Shown here piece by piece: positions 724 to 18,348 of a stretch of 18,348 nt of DNA. The notes beneath the pieces were generated by a model. The model worked only from the letters and a program-made list of their open reading frames with translations, searched no databases and was not told the origin of the DNA. The first letter of the stretch is position 1; each line of letters begins with the position of its first letter. The DNA is from an uncultured delta proteobacterium. Lineage in GTDB: Bacteria; Desulfobacterota; WTBG01; CAIYCZ01; CAIRTM01. The stretch spans positions 1-18,348 of the forward strand of contig CAWDSQ010000017.1 of assembly GCA_963804955.1 (NCBI GenBank), written 5' to 3'. Position numbers and translations under genes: made by a program.

Positions 724-1711
724 ATGCAGCCCAATATTCAGGAAATAACCAAAGAGGTTGAAAAGTACGGCCAGCTCACCACCGCCATCAGCGCCGAGGT
801 CAAAAAGGTCATTGTCGGCCAGGATTATCTGATCGAGCGCCTGCTGATCGGGCTTCTGGCCAATGGCCACATTCTCGTGGAGGGCGTGCCGGGGCTGGCA
901 AAAACCACGGCCGTAAAGACACTTGCCCGCAGCTGTCGACACGAGCTTCCAGCGCATCCAGTTCACCCCGGATCTGCTCCCGGCGGACCTCATCGGCACG
1001 CAGATTTACGAGCCCAAAACCGGGAACTTCAATATCAAAAAAGGCCCTCTGTTTTCAACATCATCCTTGCCGATGAAATCAACCGGGCGCCGGCCAAGGT
1101 GCAAAGCGCGCTTCTGGAGGCCATGCAGGAGCGCCAGGTGACAATCGGCGAGACGACCTTCCCCCTTCAGGACCCGTTTCTTGTCATGGCCACGCAGAAC
1201 CCCATCGAGCAGGAAGGCACCTATCCGCTGCCCGAGGCGCAGGTTGACCGCTTCATGCTGAAGCTGCGCATCAACTACCCCAACAAGGCCGAGGAGAAAG
1301 AGATTATCAAGCGCGTTTCCGGCAGTGCCGCATGAAGCCATCAACAAAGTGGCAAACCCGGAGCAGATCCGCAAGGCCCGCGAGGTGGTGGGCAGAATCT
1401 ACATGGATGAAAAGCTTCTGGATTATATCGTGGAGATCGTTTTTGCCACCCGGGAACCCAGGGTGTTCGGCATTGATATCGAGTCGCTCATTCAGTACGG
1501 AGCCTCGCCGCGGGCATCGCTCTATCTTGCTCAGGCGGCAAAAGCCTATGCTTTCCTGCAGGGCCGCGGGTATGTGATCCCGCAGGACATCAAGACCATC
1601 GGCCCGGACGTGCTGCGGCACCGGGTTATCTTGAGCTATGAGGCCGAAGCCGAAGACCTGACATCGGATGACATCATCGCCAGAATATTTGACAATGTGG
1701 AAGTGCCCTAA
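724..1711 (+). CDS. moxR: MoxR-family AAA+ ATPase (frameshifts near 930, 1050 and 1325)
   Basis: GGAGG RBS upstream; 'VIVGQ', Walker A 'EGVPGLAKT', 'FQRIQFTPDLLPADLIGT' (923 frame), Walker B 'IILADEINRAPAKVQSALLEAMQERQVT', 'ATQNPIEQEGTYPLPEAQVDRF', and C-terminal 'GASPRAS...VLRHR' (1325 frame). Confidence 0.95.
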
Positions 1712-1791
1712 TTTATGTGTCAGGTGCTAATTGTCAGCTGATAATCGACAACAGTGACACCACTAGCCAATTAAACCATTGAACTATTATC

Positions 1792-2668
1792 ATGATTTCA
1801 AAAGACGTCTTAAAAAACATCCGCCGCATTCATATCCGCACCAATCATATCGTCAATGATATTTTTGCCGGCGAATATGAAAGCGCGTTCCGCGGCCGCG
1901 GCATGGAGTTTGAGGAAGTGCGCGAATACGCCCCCGGCGACGATGTGCGCGACATCGACTGGAATGTCACGGCCCGCTTCGGCCACCCCTTTGTCAAGGT
2001 CTACCGCGAAGAGCGCGAGCTGACGATCATGCTGCTGGTGGATGTAAGCTCATCCTGCTTTTTCGGCACGCACAAGCGGCTCAAGCAGGAGCTGTGCCGC
2101 CGAGATCGCCTCTGTGCTGGCCTTTGCAGCCACGAAAAGCAATGACAAAGTGGGGCTTATCATTTTCAGCGACCATATCGAAAAGTTCATCCCTCCAAAG
2201 AAGGGCAAAAACCATGTCTGGGCGGTCATCAAAAGCGTGCTTGAGCATCAGCCCGTGTCCCGCAAAACCGATATCGCCGGCGCCCTCAGCTATCTCAACC
2301 GCGTGGCGCGGCGCAAGGCAGTCGCCTTCCTTATCTCCGATTTCATCGCCGCAGATTATGAGAAGCCTTTGCGGGTGGCGGGCAAAAAGCATGATCTCAT
2401 CCCCATCTGCATTACCGACCCGCGCGAGCTTGATCTTCCCAAAGTGGGCCTGGTTGAGCTGCAGGATGCCGAAAGCGGAGAAACCATTCTCATCGATTCC
2501 TCTGATGACGATTTCCGCACCGGCTACGGGCTTCTTGCCCGCAAGCGCCTGCAGGACCGCTTTGACCTCTTTCGGGCATCTGGCATCGATGCCATCGATA
2601 TCCGGACGAATGTTCCCTATATCGATCCGATCATGAAATTCTTCAGAATGCGGGAGAAACGGCTATGA
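1792..2668 (+). CDS. DUF58 family (VWA-like) MoxR-associated protein (frameshift near 2095)
   Basis: 'GEYESAFRGRGMEFEEVREYAPGDDVRDIDWNVTAR...VKVYREERELTIMLLVDVSSS', continuing in the 2114 frame as 'NDKVGLIIFSD...FLISDF...KHDLI...DPRE...DAESGE'. Confidence 0.95.
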
Positions 2669-3911
2669 ACAAATCATCGCTGATTATAAGCATGGCAGGC
2701 CTGTGCATAGCGCAGCCGCTCTGGTGCTGGTGTACACAACCGGCAGCCGGACCGCCCCGGGCCAGGCCTGGACAGCCGAGAACCAGCGGGAGCTTGCAAA
2801 CAAGCTCAAAAGCGCGGGACTGGCGCGTCAGGCAGCGCAGGAATATGAGCAGTATATTCAAGACCGCACGGCTCGAGCCCGGGCAGCTTGCAGGCCTGTG
2901 CTACACCATCGGCAAAATGTGCATGGAGGCCGGCGACTATGAAAAGGCCCTGGCCTGGCTCTACCGCGTGGAGCTTGCCGATCCGCAGACAAAGCTCAAG
3001 GCTGAACTGGGATCAAGCATCATCAACTGCCTTGAGCGCACGGGCCGCCACAGCGCTGCCGAGTATGCCCTGGCAAAACGCACCTCTGCCGCGGATAACG
3101 CCACACGCTCCGGCGGCACCGTGGTCGCTGAAATCGGCAATGACAAGGTATATCTTGAGGATATCAACGAAGCTTTTGACAATCTGCCCGACTGGATGCG
3201 CAAACAGTTCGAAAGCAAACAGCTCAAAAGCTGAATTTGCCAAAAAATATATTGCCGATGAGCTGCTGTTTCGCAAGGCGCTGAAGCTGGAGCTTGATAA
3301 GGATGCCGACATCCGGAAAAAGATGAAGATGGCCCGGCGCGAGCTTATGGTCAACCGCGTGCTTGAGACCGAGCTGAAAGACAAAATTAAGGTCGAGGAA
3401 GATGATCTGAAAAATTACTTACGAAGCGCATAAAGCTGACTATGAGCAGAAAGAAGCCGTAAAGGTAAGCCTGATCGAAGCGGTGAACCGGGAGGCGGCG
3501 GATAAAATATACAAAGAGCTCAAAGGCGGCAGAGATTTTAGCGCCTATGCCAAAGAAATATCCCTGCACAAAAACACGGCCAAAGACGGCGGCCGCTTCC
3601 CCACTTGGGTGCGCAGGGGCGAGGACGATCTCGGGATCGGCAGCACAGAGGCTGTTGGAAAAGTACTTTTTAATGCAAAGCAGGGGGAGCTCACCCAGCC
3701 CGTGCAGGCTGGCGAAAACTGGTTTGTATTCCGGATCGAGGACACGCGGGCTGCGCAGCCCACAACCTATGATGAAGCAAAAGAGCGGGTAAAAAATGAC
3801 TACTCCATGCAGAAGCTCAAAAGCTCCTACCAGAGCCTGCTTGAGCAGACCCTCAAAAGCTCGGATGTAAAGCTGCACCTTGAGGCGGTTACGGGTGAGC
3901 AGAAGAAATAA
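2665..3911 (+). CDS. Exported TPR + SurA/PrsA-like N-domain + PpiC (parvulin)-fold foldase (frameshifts near 2720, 2855, 3225 and 3420)
   Basis: ATGA overlap with the DUF58 stop; hydrophobic N-terminus; TPR-like 'LCYTIGKMCMEAGDYEKALAWLYRVELADP'; 'VVAEIGNDKVYLEDI', 'YIADELLFRKALKLELDKD'; parvulin-like 'GRDFSAYAKEIS...KDGGRF...GELTQPVQ...FVFRI'. Confidence 0.85.
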
Positions 3912-3949
3912 AAGGTTGCAGGCAATCCGTCACGGGAATTTAACTATTA

Positions 3950-5089
3950 ATGAACAATAGCTATAATAGTCAGAGTATCCATTCTGTCATTCCGGCTTGT
4001 CCGGAATCTTTACACTGCGGCGCAGAGAATACTCCACCACGGCGGACTGGAAGGACTGGACATCGTGCGTCTAGATGTAGGGTGCGCATTGCGCACCATC
4101 TTATGTCGGATTTCAATTTTGGTGCGCAATGCGCACCCTACTTGTTCTGTATCCTGCTCGCATGTTGCGCCTGCTCATCTAAAGAACAGCGCACAAACAA
4201 AAATTCGTTCCCCCGCCGGTTGAGATCAGCGCCCAGACCGACCGCACCACGGCCACCCTCTCGGAATCCGTCACATTTACGCTCAGCGCCCACTATGACA
4301 AAAACATTGACGGTGAAGCTGCCTGAAGTAGGCACGCAGATTGCCGGCCTGCGCATAACCGACTTTGGCGAAGAAGGCCCCAAAGAAATCGATAACCGGC
4401 TGGTGCATAAAAAATGGTATAAGCTTCAGGCCGACATTGCAGGTTCCTATATCATCCCCGCACAGGTCGTATCGTATGCCGGAGATAACGGCACGCGGGA
4501 GCTCAAAACGCCGCAGATATTCATTGAGGTTAAGTCGTCGCTCAAGCCGGGTCCTGATGCGCTGAAAGACATTATCGACATCAAAACGCTTGAAGAAGTT
4601 CCGTTCAACTGGCGGCCCTATATCTGGGCAGGCTGCGCCGCAGTGGTGGTTATCTGTCTCGGCGCCGGCGGCTTCATGTATTACCGTAAACGCAAAAAGA
4701 AAGCGGCCGTGCTGAAAAGGCCCGCTCACATAATCGCCCTTGAAGAAATGGAAAAACTCAAAAGCGAGCATCTCATCGAAAAAGGCATTGTGCGCGAGCA
4801 CTATTTCAGGCTCTCGGATATTTTCAGGCACTATATCGAGAACAGGTTTTCCATACCGGCCGTTGAGCAGACCACGCAGGAGCTGCTGCCCGAAATCATG
4901 CGCCTTGATGCCATGCACACAACTGCTAAATCAGGCGCCCGGGATTTCTTGCACCATTCCGACATGGTGAAATTCGCAAAGTATGTGCCTGCTGAAGATG
5001 AAGTAACGCTGAACGAACAGAATGTTGTCCGGATAATCGACGAAACAAAAATAGAAGAAGTTCTGCAAAACAGCAGTTCGATTAGCTGA
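3950..5089 (+). CDS. BatD-like/DUF4381-like lipoprotein of the Bat operon (start uncertain: 3950 or 4103; compensating frameshifts about 4190-4310)
   Basis: Lipobox-like 'LFCILLACCACSSKE'. An alternate frame at about 4216-4310 reads 'PVEISAQTDRTTATLSESVTFTLSAHYDKNID' (BatD-type N-terminus). Then 'LKDIIDIK', TM helix 'YIWAGCAAVVVICLGAGGFMYYRKRKKK', and the conserved tail 'AHIIALEEMEKL...YFRLSDIFRHYIENRF...EQTTQE...DMVKFAKY'. Confidence 0.8.
   Translation: MNNSYNSQSIHSVIPACPESLHCGAENTPPRRTGRTGHRASRCRVRIAHHLMSDFNFGAQCAPYLFCILLACCACSSKEQRTNKNSFPRRLRSAPRPTAPRPPSRNPSHLRSAPTMTKTLTVKLPEVGTQIAGLRITDFGEEGPKEIDNRLVHKKWYKLQADIAGSYIIPAQVVSYAGDNGTRELKTPQIFIEVKSSLKPGPDALKDIIDIKTLEEVPFNWRPYIWAGCAAVVVICLGAGGFMYYRKRKKKAAVLKRPAHIIALEEMEKLKSEHLIEKGIVREHYFRLSDIFRHYIENRFSIPAVEQTTQELLPEIMRLDAMHTTAKSGARDFLHHSDMVKFAKYVPAEDEVTLNEQNVVRIIDETKIEEVLQNSSSIS
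3986..4008. repeat. Single arm of a GTCA-type REP-like palindrome
   Basis: GTCATTCCGGCTTGTCCGGAATC forms a TTCCGG/CCGGAA hairpin; similar to the arms at 10547-10615. Confidence 0.7.
4077..4141. repeat. GTAG-family REP doublet (REPIN-like)
   Basis: Perfect 22-bp inverted repeat GTAGGGTGCGCATTGCGCACCA (4077-4098) / TGGTGCGCAATGCGCACCCTAC (4120-4141) with a 21-bp spacer. Each arm is itself a hairpin with the GTAG tetranucleotide foot. Confidence 0.9.
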
Positions 5090-5187
5090 ATTGTTTCAAT
5101 TAGTTGTATTGGTTAAAAGCACCCAAACCAATCAAACGAATTGAACTAATCGAACCAATAGAACTAATAAAACCAATTAAACAGTTT
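5074..5187. repeat. Inverted array of degenerate 9-mers (TRGTTNNAT x5, then NAACYAATN x7)
   Basis: Left: cagttcgat tagctgaat tgtttcaat tagttgtat tggttaaaa. Right: aaaccaatc aaacgaatt gaactaatc gaaccaata gaactaata aaaccaatt aaacagttt. Confidence 0.9.
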
Positions 5188-5189
5188 TT

Positions 5190-6185
5190 ATGCTCCGTTT
5201 TCAATCACCCTGGCTGCTTCTGCTGCTTGCCGTCATCCCGCTCATGGGATGGTACGGGCTGCGGCGTTTTGCAAGCGCGCAGATCAGGTTTTCATCGCTT
5301 CATGTGCTCGGGCAGCTAAAAACCCCGAAAACTCTCCTGTGGCGCAAGGGGCTTGTGTTTGTGCGCTGCGCGGCAATGGCGCTTTTTATCCTGGCCCTTG
5401 CCCGGCCCCAGTCGGGCATTAAGTCTACCGAGATATCGACCGAAGGCGTCGATATCATGCTGTGCCTGGACACCTCGGGCAGCATGCAGGCCCTGGATTT
5501 CAAGGAAGACGGCAACCGTGTGCCGCGCCTGCAGGTGGTGAAGCGCGTTGTGAACGATTTCATCAAGGGTCGCAAGAACGACCGTATCGGCATGGTGGTA
5601 TTCGGCCAGGAGGCCTTCACCCAGTGCCCGCTCACGCTTGACTACGGCGTGCTCTTGAGCTTTCTTGAAAAAGTCCAAATCGGCATGGCGGGCGACTCAA
5701 CGGCAATCGGTTCGGCACTGGCCGTCTGCGTAAAAAGGCTCAAAGACCTTCAGTCGAAATCAAAGGTTATTATTCTCCTGACCGATGGACGCCACAATGC
5801 CGGCAGCGTAACGCCCCCCACGGCAGCCGATATTGCAAAATCCTTCAACATCAAAATCTACACTATCGGCGTGGGCACGGAAGGCGAAGCGCCGTTTCTC
5901 GTGGATTCATTCTTCGGCAAGCAGTATGTTTATCAGAAAGTCGACCTGGATGAAGACACGCTCAAGGACGTGGCAAACCGCACGGGTGGAAAATACTTCA
6001 GGGCAACAAATACGGAAGCCCTTGAAAATATTTACAAGCAGATCGACGCCATGGAAAAAACCGAGGTGAAGCTCAAGGAGTACATGGAATATGAAGAGCT
6101 GTTCGGCTGGTTTCTCATTCCGGGGCTTGTGCTGCTGCTTCTGGAAATACTGTTGGCAAACACGCGACTCAGAAAAATACCCTGA
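5190..6185 (+). CDS. batA: BatA-like VWA domain membrane protein
   Basis: Intact 331-aa ORF; 'MLRFQSPWLLLLL', 'LALARPQ', MIDAS 'DTSGS', 'DRIGMVVFG...QCPLTLDY', 'TAIGSAL', 'ILLTDG', 'IYTIGVG', and C-terminal TM ending 'TRLRKIP'. Confidence 0.93.
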   Translation: MLRFQSPWLLLLLAVIPLMGWYGLRRFASAQIRFSSLHVLGQLKTPKTLLWRKGLVFVRCAAMALFILALARPQSGIKSTEISTEGVDIMLCLDTSGSMQALDFKEDGNRVPRLQVVKRVVNDFIKGRKNDRIGMVVFGQEAFTQCPLTLDYGVLLSFLEKVQIGMAGDSTAIGSALAVCVKRLKDLQSKSKVIILLTDGRHNAGSVTPPTAADIAKSFNIKIYTIGVGTEGEAPFLVDSFFGKQYVYQKVDLDEDTLKDVANRTGGKYFRATNTEALENIYKQIDAMEKTEVKLKEYMEYEELFGWFLIPGLVLLLLEILLANTRLRKIP

Positions 6186-6189
6186 AACC

Positions 6190-6324
6190 AGGTTCGTTAG
6201 TTGGATTAGTTTAATTGGTTTGATTAGTTGATGGGGAAAACACTTGGAAGTTTAATTTTCTCAACCAACAGAACTAACTTAACCAATACAACTAATTAAA
6301 CCAATGTAACCAATAAAACTGTTT
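6190..6324. repeat. Inverted array of degenerate 9-mers, same consensus as 5074-5187
   Basis: Left: aggttcgt tagttggat tagtttaat tggtttgat tagttgatg. Right: caaccaaca gaactaact taaccaata caactaatt aaaccaatg taaccaata aaactgttt. Confidence 0.9.
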
Positions 6325-6327
6325 TAT

Positions 6328-7340
6328 ATGGACTTCGGCAATCTAACATATCTGTTTCTGCTCTGGCTCATACCGGCGCTGGTATTCTTCTTCATGTATT
6401 CGTTCATGAAGAAGCAGCGCTGCATTCAGGAATTCTGCGGGCCCGACCTGAGCCGGAAGCTGCTTCCCGCAGGTGCAGCGGGGCCGCCAGAAGCTGAAGG
6501 CTCTTCTCGTCATTCTTGCCGTTCTGTTTCTTATCATGGCGCTGGTGCGCCCGCGCTGGGGCTTTCACTGGGAAGATATCAAGCGCACCGGCGTTGATGT
6601 CATGGTGGCGGTCGACGTATCCAAAAGCATGCTCGCCCGGGACATAGAGCCCAGCCGCCTCGAGCGCGCCAAGCGCAAGGTGCAGGACCTTGTGAAAATG
6701 CTTGAGGGCGACCGCATCGGCCTCATAGCCTTTGCAGGCGCCAGTTTCGTGCAGTGCCCGCTCACGCTCGACTACGGCGCGTTCAGCATGTTCCTTGACT
6801 ATCTCTCGCCCGATCTGATTCCCGTGCCCGGCACGGCCATCGGCGATGCGATCAGAAAAGCCGTTGAATCCTTCAGCCGGCAGGAGCGCACTGCAAAAGC
6901 GCTCATCCTCATCACCGACGGCGAAGACCATGACAGCAAGCCACTTGAAGCTGCCGAGCTTGCAAAAAAAGAGGGCGTGCGGATATTTACCATCGGCATC
7001 GGCAAAGAGGACGCGGGCGCGCCTATCCCCGCAGGCGACGGCTCCGGGGGGTTTCATGAAAGACCGGCAGGGCAATATGATCATGAGCAAACTTGATGAA
7101 AAGACCCTGCAGAAAATCGCCCTTGAAACAGGCGGCAGCTATGTGCGCTCGGTCACGGGAGACATGGACCTTGAGGCAATATACAAAAATGAGATTCGAA
7201 AAAGCATGGAGCAGAAAGAGCTGACCTCAACGCGCAAGAAGCGCTGGGAAGAACGTTTTCAGTGGTTCCTTGCCGCCGCCGTGCTCCTGCTGCTTGCCGA
7301 ATTCTTTATCCGCGAAAAAAGCACTGCCAAAGCCCAGTGA
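6328..7340 (+). CDS. batB: BatB-like VWA domain membrane protein (frameshifts near 6470 and 7050)
   Basis: 'MDFGNLTYLFLLWLIP', 'ALVRPRWG', MIDAS 'DVSKSMLARDIEPSRLERAK', 'GDRIGLIAFAG...QCPLTLDY', 'LITDGEDH', 'SKLDEKTLQKIALETGGSY', 'ERFQWFL'. Confidence 0.92.
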
Positions 7341-14663: not shown

Positions 14664-15356
14664 CTATTGCAGACAGCTGCTTGATGTCGCGGTGGTGTTG
14701 TCCGGGATGATCCATTCGCATTCAGTATGCATAACGCGGTCACTCAGGATTCCCGGCAGGTTGATGAGCATTTTAAGCCCGTCCCCGGGATCAAAAGAAT
14801 CTTTCACGCCCCAGAGGGCCAGATAATCGCCGCCAACGTTATAAGGGTCCCAGTAATATAAATACCAGGTTCCGGGCTCGGTTATCGTATAGTCATAGTA
14901 ATCCGTAATGTAATAGGACTTTTTGCTGTACTGCTCATAGAAAAAGTTTCTTCCCGCTCCCGGCTCCGTATTTTTTATGACAATTGCCCCATAGCCTGCA
15001 GGAAGGGTAAAGGGGATATCTTCTGTTGGTGCCGGCAGCCCCGGACCGACAATGGCCAGCCATGGTAAAAATTCCGGCCCACCCTCACAGGCAGGGACAT
15101 TCACCCTGACGCGCAGGGTCACGCTGCCTTTTTCGCTGATCTCCTTTTGGGGAACGGTAAACCGGTACACATCGATATCGCTGCCTGAATTGAGATAGGC
15201 GTAAACGGCCTGACCCTTTTCTATAGTCCCCTTGATTCTAAAAGGCCATTTTTCTGTCAAATCCCGGCGTTCAACATTGGGCATATGTGCGGCAGCAGGC
15301 AGGGAAAACACGAATAGCCCGGCAATGAGAACACATCAACTCAATATGGTTTTCAT
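14664..15356 (-). CDS. Secreted hypothetical protein; in-frame TGA at codon 7 of the signal peptide
   Basis: AAGGAGG RBS then ATG at 15356, in frame with the 14664..15311 ORF: MKTILS*CVLIAGLFVFSLPAAA-HMPN. Beta-rich body 'AVYAYLNSGSDIDVYRFTV', 'LAIVGPGLP', 'PGTWYLYYWDP'. Confidence 0.75.
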
Positions 15357-15899: not shown

Positions 15900-18333
15900 T
15901 TACTTCATCCCATGAACCCTCTCATAGGGCCACATCACAATGCCGCCGTCCATGACGCGCACCTTTGAAAACCCTGCGGCCTTGAGAATAAGTGCGGCCT
16001 CATAGCCGCGAATTGACAAGCGGCAAAACGCCACTATTTCTTTGTCTTTCGGGATTTCCGAAAGCCGGGAGCGCAGGGCGCCCGAGGGAATATGCATCGA
16101 GCCGGGCAGACGCACTTCTTCGTACTCCTGCGGCGAACTCACGTCCAGCATAACGAAATCCTCATGGCGCTGCATCTTGGCATGCACCTCCATGGGGCTG
16201 ATGCTCTCAAAAACGCCGTCAAGCTTGTTCTTGGCAATATTGGCGCCGGTGATGAGATTGTCCATGGCAAGTGAATACGGCGGAGCATAGCAGAGATCGA
16301 GATTGGCGATCTGATCCACCGTCATGCCTGCAGTGATAGCGGTCGTTGCCACATCGATACGCTTGTCGCCCTGCCCCGGCCCTGCCGCCTGCACACCCAG
16401 GAGCCGCCGCGACGGCGCGTCGACGATCAATTTCAGCATCAGTGGTTTGGCATTGGGCATAAAATGCTCGCGGTCGTGACGCGCCGGTAAGCACCGTCAC
16501 CACATCAAAGCCTGCATCGCGGGCATCGGCTTCGGTAAGCCCTGTGCGGGCGATACAGTACTCAAACACCTTGCAGACCACGGTGCCGAGCACGCCGGGA
16601 AAGGTATCGTTACCGCCGCAAATATTGACGGCCGCAATGCGGCCCTGTTTATTGGCCGTTGAGCCCATGGGCACGTATATGGGCTGCCCGGTAATGATAT
16701 CGATATTTTCCACGCAGTCGCCTGCGGCAAATATGTCGGGATCGGAGGTGAGCATGCGGTTGTCGACCCTGATGGCCTGCGTGGGGCCGATTTCCAGGCC
16801 TGCATTGCGGGCAAGCTCAACCTGGGGGCTTACGCCCACCCCGAGTATCACCATATCGGCCGGCAGCGTAGCCTTGTCGGTCACCACGCCCTCAACAAAC
16901 TCGGAGCCGGCAAATGACATGACGCGGGTATCGGTCATGACGCGCACGCCATTTGCCTCCATGTGCAGCTCCAGCAGCTGCGCCATTTCCCAGTCAAGGG
17001 TGCGCATGATCTGATTCAGGGCCTCAACGATAGTCACGCGGCAGCCGCGGGCCACCAGCGCTTCGGTCATTTCAACGCCGATGAGACCGCCGCCGACGAT
17101 AACCACATCGCGCGCCTTGCAGCTTGCAAGATGGGTGCGCACGCCTTCGGCATCGCGCACGCCGTGCAGGGTGTAGATATTGTTCAAATACGCACCGGGC
17201 AAAGGCGGTATGATGGGTGTGGCCCCTGTAGCCAGCACGAGCTTATCATAGCTGATCCAGCTTTCCCTGGATGAAATAAGATTTTTGATGCGCACGCGCT
17301 TGGCCGCGCGGTCGATTTCAAGGGCCTCGGTTCGGTTCAGAACATTGACATTTTTCAGATTTTGAAAAAAAACAGGGTCGCGCACGCAACCGAGAGGCGT
17401 GCTCATGAGTTCCTTCTGGTCCTTCACGACGCCCGAAACATAGTAGGGAAGGCCGCAGCCGGCATAGGAGAGAAACTCGCCCCGCTCAATGATGGTAACG
17501 GCGGTTTCAGGCTGAAGGCGAATGACCTTTGATGCAACCTTGGGACCCGCAGCAACGCCGCCGATGATGACCACCTTCATGCGGTCCTGGTCAAACAGCT
17601 CCGACTCCCGGGGGACCTGGTCGTCGGCAATGCGGGGCAGCACCATGGAGAACTCAGCCCCGCCGAAATCGGCCTTCTGAACCGAGATTCTGCCGCCGGC
17701 GGCATCAACCACAGCTTTAACAAAGGCAAGCCCGAGGCCCACGCCCGGCAGGGTCGTGTTCTGACACGCTTGCCGAACGGTAGAAGGGCTCGAATATCCT
17801 TTCGCGCTGGTCTTCAGGCACGCCGATGCCCGAATCAGCCACTGAAATGCATATGGAATCGTTCTGCAAGAAGCAACGAGTGTCAGGCGAACCTTACCAT
17901 TATCGGGGGTGTATTTCAGGGCATTGTTCACCAGGGCATTGAGCACCTCGGCAAAACCGGATTCGGCTATGCGTATATAGGCGGGCTCTATCTGGATATC
18001 AAGGCTCAGGGCTATATGGCGGCCACGGGCTTCCTCTGTCAGCTGGTGCTGTGCGCGGCGGACCACGGCTGCGGCTTCGCAGATGGAGTTGCCGTCGCCG
18101 CCGCTTGTTTCCGGCCGCACAATGGCCAGCATCCTGGTTACAGCATCAAGTGCCTCCTCGATGCGCCTGTCCGCCCGTGACACCAGATCTTTCTGCTTTG
18201 AATTGAGGCGGCCGGCATACTCCCCAAGTATCGTTTTGAGCAGCGATGCAGCCGCGCCGACAGGGGAGCGCAGCTGGTGGGCAACCAGAGCCGCAAATTG
18301 CAGGGGGTCTTCATGTCCTTTTTTTTCAGTCAT
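15900..18333 (-). CDS. Histidine kinase (HisKA + HATPase_c) fused to a CoA-disulfide/persulfide reductase-type FAD oxidoreductase with C-terminal rhodanese (frameshifts near 17870, 17770 and 16485)
   Basis: H-box 'VAHQLRSP', N-box 'LVNNALKYT', G1/F boxes '[24 protein letters not shown]' in an alternate frame (about 17775-17860), G2 '[10 protein letters not shown]'. Then FAD motif '[10 protein letters not shown]', redox Cys 'SYAGCGLPY', 'LATGA', NAD motif '[11 protein letters not shown]', 'IFAAGDC', dimerisation 'DLCYAPPY', and rhodanese 'AFCRLSIRG...VMDGG..MWPY'. Confidence 0.88.
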
Positions 18334-18348
18334 GGCTGCATGCTGCTA

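Follow-up and report, generated by a model that had tools for sequence, protein, structure and literature searches.

The locus described here raises the question of whether a whole catalytic enzyme, placed on the C-terminal side of a histidine kinase core, might serve as the sensor of that kinase; histidine kinases are usually controlled N-terminally by dedicated sensor domains. It lies in an 18,348-base stretch of DNA from an uncultured delta proteobacterium (hereafter the window), which is an entire contig (C17) of a 36-contig, 4.26-Mb metagenome-assembled genome (MAG) that is 87% complete. On the minus strand at 15900..18333 (ATG at 18333, stop codon at 15902-15900), a conceptual fusion gene of 810 codons encodes a kinase core, a linker, a reductase of the Npsr type and a rhodanese domain, so that the Pfam domains HisKA, HATPase_c, Pyr_redox_2, Pyr_redox_dim and Rhodanese follow one another along the gene. 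The fusion is real and conserved. Judged by its sequence, we rate it as a putative two-component transmitter with an unprecedented enzyme-type candidate input at its C-terminus and a non-canonical H box.

A first-pass annotation of this DNA had described a single in-frame gene. The gene, its domains, strand and ends all stand, but there is no single open frame in the window copy, which contains three 1-nt indels that this annotation had missed: a deletion near 17866, an insertion at 17765 and one extra base at 16476..16477 (around 16480 in the DNA alignment described below). The first two displace the G1 and F boxes of the kinase, and the third displaces the dimerisation and rhodanese part. 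The minus-strand open reading frame (ORF) at 16219-18333, of 704 amino acids, carries the H, N and G2 boxes and Pyr_redox_2, and an ORF in a different frame, 15900-16460, holds Pyr_redox_dim and Rhodanese. Three-frame translation combined with motif mapping places the H, N and G2 boxes in the same frame as the first residues of the reductase (MKVVIIGG, 17580), the G1 box ADSGIGV (17839-17819) and F box FEPFYRS (17794-17774) in a second, and CYAPPYS (16292-16272) and the rhodanese loop FCRLSIR (16028-16008) in a third. A tblastn comparison with the intact ortholog of genome G004 shows the same pattern, with segments at 18333-16447 (frame -1), 17866-17738 (frame -3) and 16490-15903 (frame -2).

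The three frameshifts are assembly errors, not biology, since contigs of independent sequencing runs and orthologs are without all three. For the DNA alignment we used the window gene, two copies from the same MAG (C3, 97%, and C18, 95%) and orthologs from three genomes of the same genus (G002, G003 and G004); the first two indels compensate each other and bound the stretch 17765..17866. C3 and C18 have indels of their own, different from these, seven of them in C18. Logan contigs of four public runs from four studies (X1, X2, X3 and X5) were also placed on 15900-18348; they are 88-99% like the window and so represent close relatives, not necessarily the same strain. The extra letter at 16476/7 is omitted in three of three contigs of X1 and in one of one in both X2 and X5, that at 17765 is omitted in one of one in both X1 and X5, and after 17865 an extra G is present in one of one in both X1 and X5. 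Every run contig that covers the three sites is therefore without the window indel; no further indel is listed, and X3 covers none of the sites. Three other contigs of the MAG, C18, C3 and C15, are collinear with C17, with 89-95% identity and numerous gaps; the bin holds redundant, error-rich copies of one region. The practical point for this contig is that, being error-rich, its frames need checking against relatives before gene architecture is read from them.

The same care applies to the junction between the two halves. The first-pass annotation had the linker running in frame into the reductase, and cautioned that one extra base in the G5 run at 17610-17614 would bring in a stop codon ahead of the reductase start. 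The linker (residues ~235-251, at 17581..17631, including this C5/G5 run) does run in frame into MKVVIIGG, and the junction is equally long in the window, C3, G002, G003 and G004. An additional base does produce the predicted stop, as seen in the duplicate C18, which alone has an extra G in the run and whose kinase ORF ends at 251 amino acids; the window is not affected. Three run contigs (X2 record 15, X3 record 21 and X5 record 28) cross the run free of gaps, with fewer than 31 letters beyond it, and are not counted as bridging; because they are too short on the far side, the junction call rests on the orthologs. That an indel at the junction fakes the fusion, or that the gene is dead in its source organism, could be argued from the three frameshifts in the window copy, the stop after the kinase in C18 and the error-rich assembly. 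However, the junction is as long as in intact orthologs, all three indels are absent from independent-run contigs, and the fusion is intact in six relatives and in more than 100 database proteins, so that this explanation is largely refuted and retains next to no probability.

Full-length fused homologs in independent genomes, which the first-pass annotation had proposed to look for, were found at several levels. In a DNA search of 16 other genomes of the family the locus is present in nine: six (G004, G002, G013, G011, G005 and G012) contain intact in-frame fusion ORFs of 810-820 codons, spanning at least four genera at 66-89% protein identity, one (G003) is frameshifted, and in two (G001 and G006) the gene is truncated where the contig ends. 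When residues 1-400 of the G004 protein served as query in a word-indexed search, 120 best matches were listed, of which 116, of 794-842 amino acids, combine HATPase_c, Pyr_redox_2 and Rhodanese; the remaining four are shorter (511-704 amino acids) and one of them is the window's own broken ORF. The listed proteins carry generic annotations such as 'FAD-dependent oxidoreductase' or 'NADH peroxidase' and come from MAGs of Desulfobacteraceae, Lentisphaerae, Victivallales, Phycisphaerae, Planctomycetes and Hydrogenedentes, as well as from Verrucomicrobiota and Chloroflexota. Among the 80 loci kept from a search of genome contigs, the kinase part lies directly upstream and in the same frame in ten (Planctomycetota, Lentisphaerota, Verrucomicrobiota, Chloroflexota and Spirochaetota), the other 70 being stand-alone reductases, and a scan of metagenome contigs contributed one further fused gene of 810 amino acids (L181). 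The conservation figures given below refer to an alignment of 37 members, made up of six loci and 31 of the 120 listed matches hand-picked across identity bands and named phyla. Residue conservation in this alignment shows both halves to be under purifying selection.

Alignment and predicted fold show the enzyme half to be a close homolog of characterised persulfide reductases, in agreement with the CoADR-RHD/Npsr identity originally proposed for it. Full-length alignments link residues 252-801 to A. fulgidus Npsr (6PFZ, E = 5.6e-148), B. anthracis CoADR-RHD (3ICR, 5.1e-109), Shewanella loihica Npsr (3NTA, 2e-103) and E. faecalis CoAPR (8A56, 1.5e-96). An AlphaFold2 (AF2) model of the G004 ortholog, built from the 37-row alignment, has a mean predicted local distance difference test score (pLDDT) of 84.4 and a predicted template modelling score (pTM) of 0.65. 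In Foldseek its enzyme part matches 6PFZ with a target-normalised template modelling (TM) score of 0.95, a root-mean-square deviation of 2.1 Å and 45% identity, and target-normalised TM scores against solved Npsr, CoADR-RHD and CoAPR members range over 0.89-0.96. With these enzymes the fusion shares the single redox Cys beside the flavin adenine dinucleotide (FAD), the NADH motif, the interface domain and the C-terminal rhodanese Cys loop; the difference is that they stand alone, whereas the fusion adds a histidine kinase core of 250 residues at the N-terminus.

All of the elements of the enzyme can be located in the window, including the SYAGC, CYAPPY and CRLSIR motifs that the first reading of the sequence had picked out. 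The FAD- and NAD(P)H-binding domains (Pyr_redox_2, 215 bits) comprise residues 252-545 at 16699..17580, with the FAD motif GGVAAG, the NADH motif GGGLIG at 17094-17077 and AAGDCVE at 16728-16708. The redox Cys, Cys293 in SYAGCG (codon 17457-17455; SYAGC spans 17469-17452), is invariant in 37 of 37 members and aligns with the Cys of A. fulgidus Npsr (AfNpsr), the FAD and NAD glycine motifs are kept, and Glu437, which ends the strand after GGGLIG, is also invariant. The interface or dimerisation domain, Pyr_redox_dim, covers residues 587-690 (16263..16575) and contains CYAPPYS. The C-terminal rhodanese domain covers residues 716-801 (15930..16187). Its CRLSIR loop (16025-16008), in which 16025-16023 encode Cys770, is aligned with the AfNpsr loop that contains Cys519. 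Pfam scores in the ortholog are 69.5 bits for Pyr_redox and 64.5 bits for Pyr_redox_dim, the latter falling to 38.6 bits in the window ORF 15900-16460, and Rhodanese scores 56.8 bits in the G004 ortholog and 57.1 bits in the window.

In an NCBIfam scan no model reaches its cut-off or represents the fusion. The two CoA-disulfide reductase models, both for rhodanese-less CoADR, are missed with 425.7 against 578.8 bits (TIGR03385) and 382.3 against 458 bits (NF007123). The fusion further differs from the known Npsr and CoADR-RHD enzymes in 20 clade-specific residues, 11 of them within positions 390-459 of the NAD domain, and the unfused forms nested among the fusions (see below) share these residues. 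Available parts of one source on the characterised enzymes describe PNDOR/Npsr proteins as homodimeric, with a surface Cys of the rhodanese domain accepting sulfur and bound coenzyme A (CoA) carrying it to the FAD-side Cys, and AfNpsr as favouring persulfides and polysulfides over disulfides (PMC7969121).

The kinase half begins with a helical hairpin, the dimerisation and histidine phosphotransfer (DHp) domain, at residues 10-72 (18118..18306), where the HisKA match covers residues 12-75 and the ortholog model has helices at 10-36 and 45-72. DHp domains dimerise. The H box AHQLRSP lies at 18282-18262, with the codon of the phospho-acceptor His19 at 18279-18277 and that of Gln20, the residue following it (H+1), at 18276-18274. 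The catalytic and ATP-binding (CA) domain, HATPase_c, extends over residues ~87-234 (17632..18075) and includes the N box NNALKYTP (17928-17905), the out-of-frame G1 and F boxes and the G2 box GVGLGL (17745-17728). The first-pass annotation had called this kinase core complete. All five boxes are present, and every one of the 37 members conserves His19, the DHp surface around it and the N, G1, F and G2 boxes; what does not hold is an acidic H+1 residue, which is replaced by Gln, and G1 and F boxes in frame in the window copy, where the indels displace them. For HATPase_c the score of 83.8 bits in the intact ortholog drops to 33.8 bits in the window ORF. HisKA narrowly misses its gathering cut-off of 26.9, with 26.7 bits in the window ORF and 26.0 bits in the G004 ortholog, and a precomputed PF00512 assignment is listed for many of the 120 matches.

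Residues 11-230 align with the HisKA kinase HK853 of T. maritima (3DGE, E = 1e-21), and PnpS, WalK and PhoR are the nearest NCBIfam similarities of the kinase half. Like HK853, WalK/YycG and PhoR, it has its acceptor His on a DHp hairpin, and its CA domain contains the N, G1, F and G2 boxes. In contrast to HK853, WalK and PhoR, it is without transmembrane, PAS, HAMP or other N-terminal input, its extra domains are exclusively C-terminal, its H+1 residue is Gln, its HisKA score is below the cut-off and it has no adjacent cognate regulator. The acceptor His is found at residue 15-60 (median 20) in 37 of 37 members, and so there is no room for an N-terminal sensor; in the window His19 is 18 residues from the start, and stops occur in all three frames within 20 nt upstream of the ATG. 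The absence of an N-terminal input domain noted at the outset is thus borne out.

Between the halves, the spacing from GGAEF to VVIIGG in the 37 members is 24-35 residues, with a median of 30 and exactly 30 in 22 of them, while the sequence varies freely. Since length is constrained and sequence is not, the linker may well be a spacer with a geometric role. An internal start at the reductase Met was considered as a conserved feature and rejected, a Met directly before the first-strand K/R being present in only 19 of the 37 members.

The explanation that we consider best, and which we hold to be about evenly balanced between right and wrong, is that of a soluble, dimeric, orphan two-component transmitter of ~810 residues with a persulfide-reductase flavoenzyme as its input device. 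In this arrangement a sensor-less, HisKA-type DHp and CA core is tied by a length-constrained linker of ~20 residues to a complete reductase of the Npsr/CoADR-RHD type. The enzyme is taken to be the input because nothing else in the protein could be, and its role as a C-terminal redox or sulfur input to the kinase is plausible. Its steady state would be set by the supply of NADH relative to the load of sulfane sulfur (persulfide or polysulfide), and would be expressed in the redox state of the FAD, in Cys293 being free or in a mixed disulfide or persulfide with CoA, and in the position of the rhodanese domain. This state would alter the access of the CA domain to the DHp His and, through changed access, tip the balance of kinase and phosphatase action on a response regulator whose gene lies elsewhere.

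Several of the results taken up from here to the unfused relatives weigh against this reading. The linker is predicted to be flexible, with pLDDT below 50 at residues 242-247 of the G004 model, whose pTM is the 0.65 given above. A complex prediction of residues 1-240 with residues 252-810, from 37-row alignments and with controls not run, scored 0.00, which is no evidence on contact either way. In 33 of the 37 members the rhodanese Cys is kept, the other four having Ser or Gly in the loops SRLCIR, GSISLR (twice) and SYISLR while retaining the FAD-side Cys; because these four are without the rhodanese Cys, sulfane sulfur cannot be the signal in all members. The rhodanese loop of the G011 locus (L008) has a Cys three positions later. 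The gene is also rare and patchy, occurring in five of 401 evenly sampled genomes of the window's phylum, all from the window's own family, and in two of 301 Planctomycetota genomes, the centre genome included; these are not enough loci for a comparison of gene contexts.

The surroundings of the gene were also examined for the response regulator of such a transmitter. No match to Response_reg was found with Pfam among 25 window ORFs or the neighbours scanned, and across the loci examined no response regulator is conserved adjacent to the fusion gene. With a home-made profile, receiver (REC) domains are detected in the flanks of five of 19 fused loci, and only one of these (L032) is adjacent and co-directional. 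In this Sedimentisphaerales MAG (L032:4353-9219) a Rex-like gene (CoA_binding and Put_DNA-bind_N), a GAF-kinase with the H box AHCIKN, a single REC protein of 131 amino acids and the fusion are arranged head to tail with gaps of 5-22 nt. In a Verrucomicrobiota MAG (L040:3294-9731) the fusion lies between hypD-hypE and a hypB-like (CobW/HypB) gene, which is followed by a CBS-pair protein. Both contexts are single cases; they fit a redox theme and count in favour of the flavoenzyme as input, but name no partner. Other candidate regulators were rejected. In two genomes of a single genus a REC-HD-GYP protein, 76% identical between them, is encoded at a distance of 2.4-3.8 kb and is unsupported as a partner; in a third genus the nearby protein is a 41% paralog beside its own hybrid kinase. 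The OmpR-type regulator downstream of the fusion in G012 and G006 is accompanied by a HAMP kinase of its own.

The H box itself argues against ordinary autokinase activity. H+1 is Gln in the window and in 120 of the 120 matches listed. As a control we took, from an exhaustive search with the kinase part, the 148 matches P0121-P0268, of which 144 have a recognisable H box: 129 have Glu or Asp at H+1 and nine have Gln, eight of these nine being kin of the fusion family. According to the accessible parts of two sources, the acid at H+1 is the general base for autophosphorylation and Thr or Asn at H+4 governs phosphatase activity (PMC8292422, PMC7005713); the former adds that HisKA proteins strictly conserve the acid and that kinases which lose it are inactive (PMC8292422). 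At H+4 the 120 listed matches have mostly Ser, with Ala in eight, Thr in three, Gly in two and Met in one. Because Gln occupies H+1 in every member examined, the module may autophosphorylate poorly or in an unconventional way, and its main activity is perhaps that of a phosphatase; within the mechanism proposed above it would probably be weak or unconventional in autophosphorylation and might act mainly as a signal-controlled phosphatase or phosphotransfer partner.

The furthest step in this direction is a transmitter whose DHp-CA module is altogether unable to autophosphorylate and which would dephosphorylate, or act as a phosphate sink for, a regulator charged by another kinase, at a rate set by the flavoenzyme. 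The universal Gln at H+1 is what such a protein would be expected to show, and the Ser prevalent at H+4 offers a hydroxyl like that of the usual Thr. There is also a precedent, to judge from the part of PMC8292422 available: the Deinococcus bacteriophytochrome DrBphP, likewise a HisKA transmitter without an acidic H+1, has no kinase activity and is a net phosphatase, which is linked there to the missing acid. In DrBphP, however, H+1 is His, H+4 is Glu and the photosensor is N-terminal, where the fusion has Gln, mostly Ser and a C-terminal enzyme as candidate sensor. The L032 locus, with the fusion following a second kinase and a single REC protein in one apparent operon, would provide the required partners. 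Yet the kinase of that locus is likewise without an acidic H+1, and Gln might still be able to position the His. The ATP-binding boxes are invariant in 37 of 37 members, which speaks for a kinase, though nucleotide binding also stimulates phosphatase activity, as stated in the accessible part of PMC7005713. Taken together, we regard this alternative as unlikely.

The unfused relatives of both halves also have to be considered. A quick maximum-likelihood tree of the reductase part was calculated from 74 rows, 46 of them fused (the 37 aligned members and nine loci) and 28 unfused (all nine complete close ones and 19 of about 58 distant ones, hand-picked; the partial loci L026, L027, L029 and L079 were excluded). 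A single clade of 55 contains all 46 fused rows, and nine unfused reductases are nested within it; these start at their own Met, with stops upstream. The tree requires five changes, but only one is forced by branches with good support. A single ancient fusion with later losses is the simplest reading, and the tree is compatible with it without being proof. With the fusion kinase as query, a separate kinase copy was not found in five genomes of the nested unfused reductases, and since these reductases occur unfused and with no such copy found in those five genomes, the enzyme evidently works without the kinase. Conversely, there are stand-alone kinases of 238-239 amino acids that are 43-49% identical to the kinase half of the fusion. 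A metagenome-contig scan with one of them (P0123, 239 amino acids) gave nearly exclusively generic kinases, at 24-51% identity over the best segment and many of them partial; its sole good match was L181 (46%), itself fused. Three of the stand-alone sensor-less kinases, P0121, P0123 and P0125, share the AHQ H box of the fusion; one carries a Planctomycetota source name.

An enzyme that works alone might be the whole point of the protein, which would then be a persulfide or polysulfide reductase with a kinase-like appendage that senses ATP or stabilises the dimer, and with no response regulator at all. The fully conserved catalytic machinery and the lack of a regulator conserved nearby fit this well, and both halves are natural dimers, the reductases being so described in the available part of PMC7969121. 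An invariant phospho-acceptor His and DHp surface would, however, be needless in a mere sensor of ATP, and the close unfused enzymes manage without the module; we consider the idea very improbable. That the two halves function independently, joined for co-expression or co-localisation with the kinase receiving its signal from a separate partner protein, we hold to be quite improbable. The flexible, sequence-variable linker and the stand-alone kinases of the same type would suit such an uncoupled arrangement. So would a small RsbRD_N/HisK_N-like protein of 181-223 amino acids that, with rnf genes, is encoded beside the fusion in genus g2 (L015:2729-3271; L012:11682-12350) and might be a candidate separate input partner for the sensor-less kinase. 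Against it, the fusion is kept in at least five phyla with a constrained linker length, and no partner is conserved across loci.

The reading of the flavoenzyme as input can finally be set beside known systems. FAD-PAS sensors such as NifL and MmoS, and the trigger enzyme PutA, illustrate control of signalling output by the redox state of a cofactor or enzyme, and CheA, with P5 following its CA domain, shows that a regulatory domain can be placed C-terminally. To our knowledge none of these, nor the sulfide sensor NreB, has a complete pyridine-nucleotide-disulfide oxidoreductase attached to the C-terminal end of a histidine kinase. NreB of B. licheniformis, in the part of PMC13478379 available, senses sulfide through an N-terminal PAS domain with a [2Fe-2S] cluster; it is like the fusion, as proposed here, in that cofactor redox state controls signalling, and unlike it in that its sensor is the N-terminal Fe-S PAS domain. 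The first-pass annotation knew of no characterised protein with the present architecture, and full-text searches, whose coverage does not extend to subscription journals, turned up no publication that describes a CoADR/Npsr enzyme fused to a histidine kinase. A bolder claim would be that of a new transmitter class, in which the turnover state of a fully active C-terminal flavoenzyme, governed by NADH and sulfane sulfur, gates a Gln-substituted HisKA module. Working by a non-canonical mechanism, this module would mostly dephosphorylate an orphan regulator under control of the signal, or drain phosphate from it, and the class would be the first enzyme-based sulfur/redox two-component sensor, spread horizontally among anaerobes. 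In that full form we find it doubtful, if conceivable.

The interest of the protein is that an entire catalytic enzyme, C-terminal to the kinase, is its sole candidate sensor, and that the kinase motif is without the residue held essential for autophosphorylation. If coupling is true, it would represent a testable 'trigger enzyme' inside a two-component system, a candidate cytoplasmic sensor of sulfane sulfur or of the NADH/NAD+ balance in sulfur-cycling anaerobes, and a natural test case for the function of the H+1 residue. Both halves have well-studied relatives with solved structures, so experiments should be straightforward.

As to the immediate surroundings, in the window's genus the fusion gene follows a DUF2333 gene, with MutL, a Kdo-kinase-like gene and a DAO oxidoreductase upstream. 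Directly downstream in the window are a secreted protein of ~215-235 amino acids and then TerC; the G004 locus differs downstream. The secreted protein is conserved (window 14664-15311; L017:8142-8846) and has no Pfam or NCBIfam match.

Some further observations concern individual loci and the rest of the contig. A fused homolog from Spirochaetes (L041:5288-7786), 25% identical in the kinase part, has an in-frame stop inside the H box (AHQM*SP). In a Thiocapsa MAG (L053:5971-8232) an ORF of the stand-alone CoADR-RHD type extends 194 codons upstream, and the extension matches a fragment of EAL (profile positions 5-72 of 236). At 724-7340 the window contains an aerotolerance-like cluster of the Bat/MoxR type, with MoxR AAA_3, DUF58, a PPIase-like domain and two BatA/VWA proteins. 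The MoxR AAA+ protein with its lid (724-1332/1325-1708) is split into overlapping ORFs, as is an ABC-F ATPase (7794-8588/8570-9535); the DUF58 gene is also split, and 1792-2142 is among the broken stretches of the contig.

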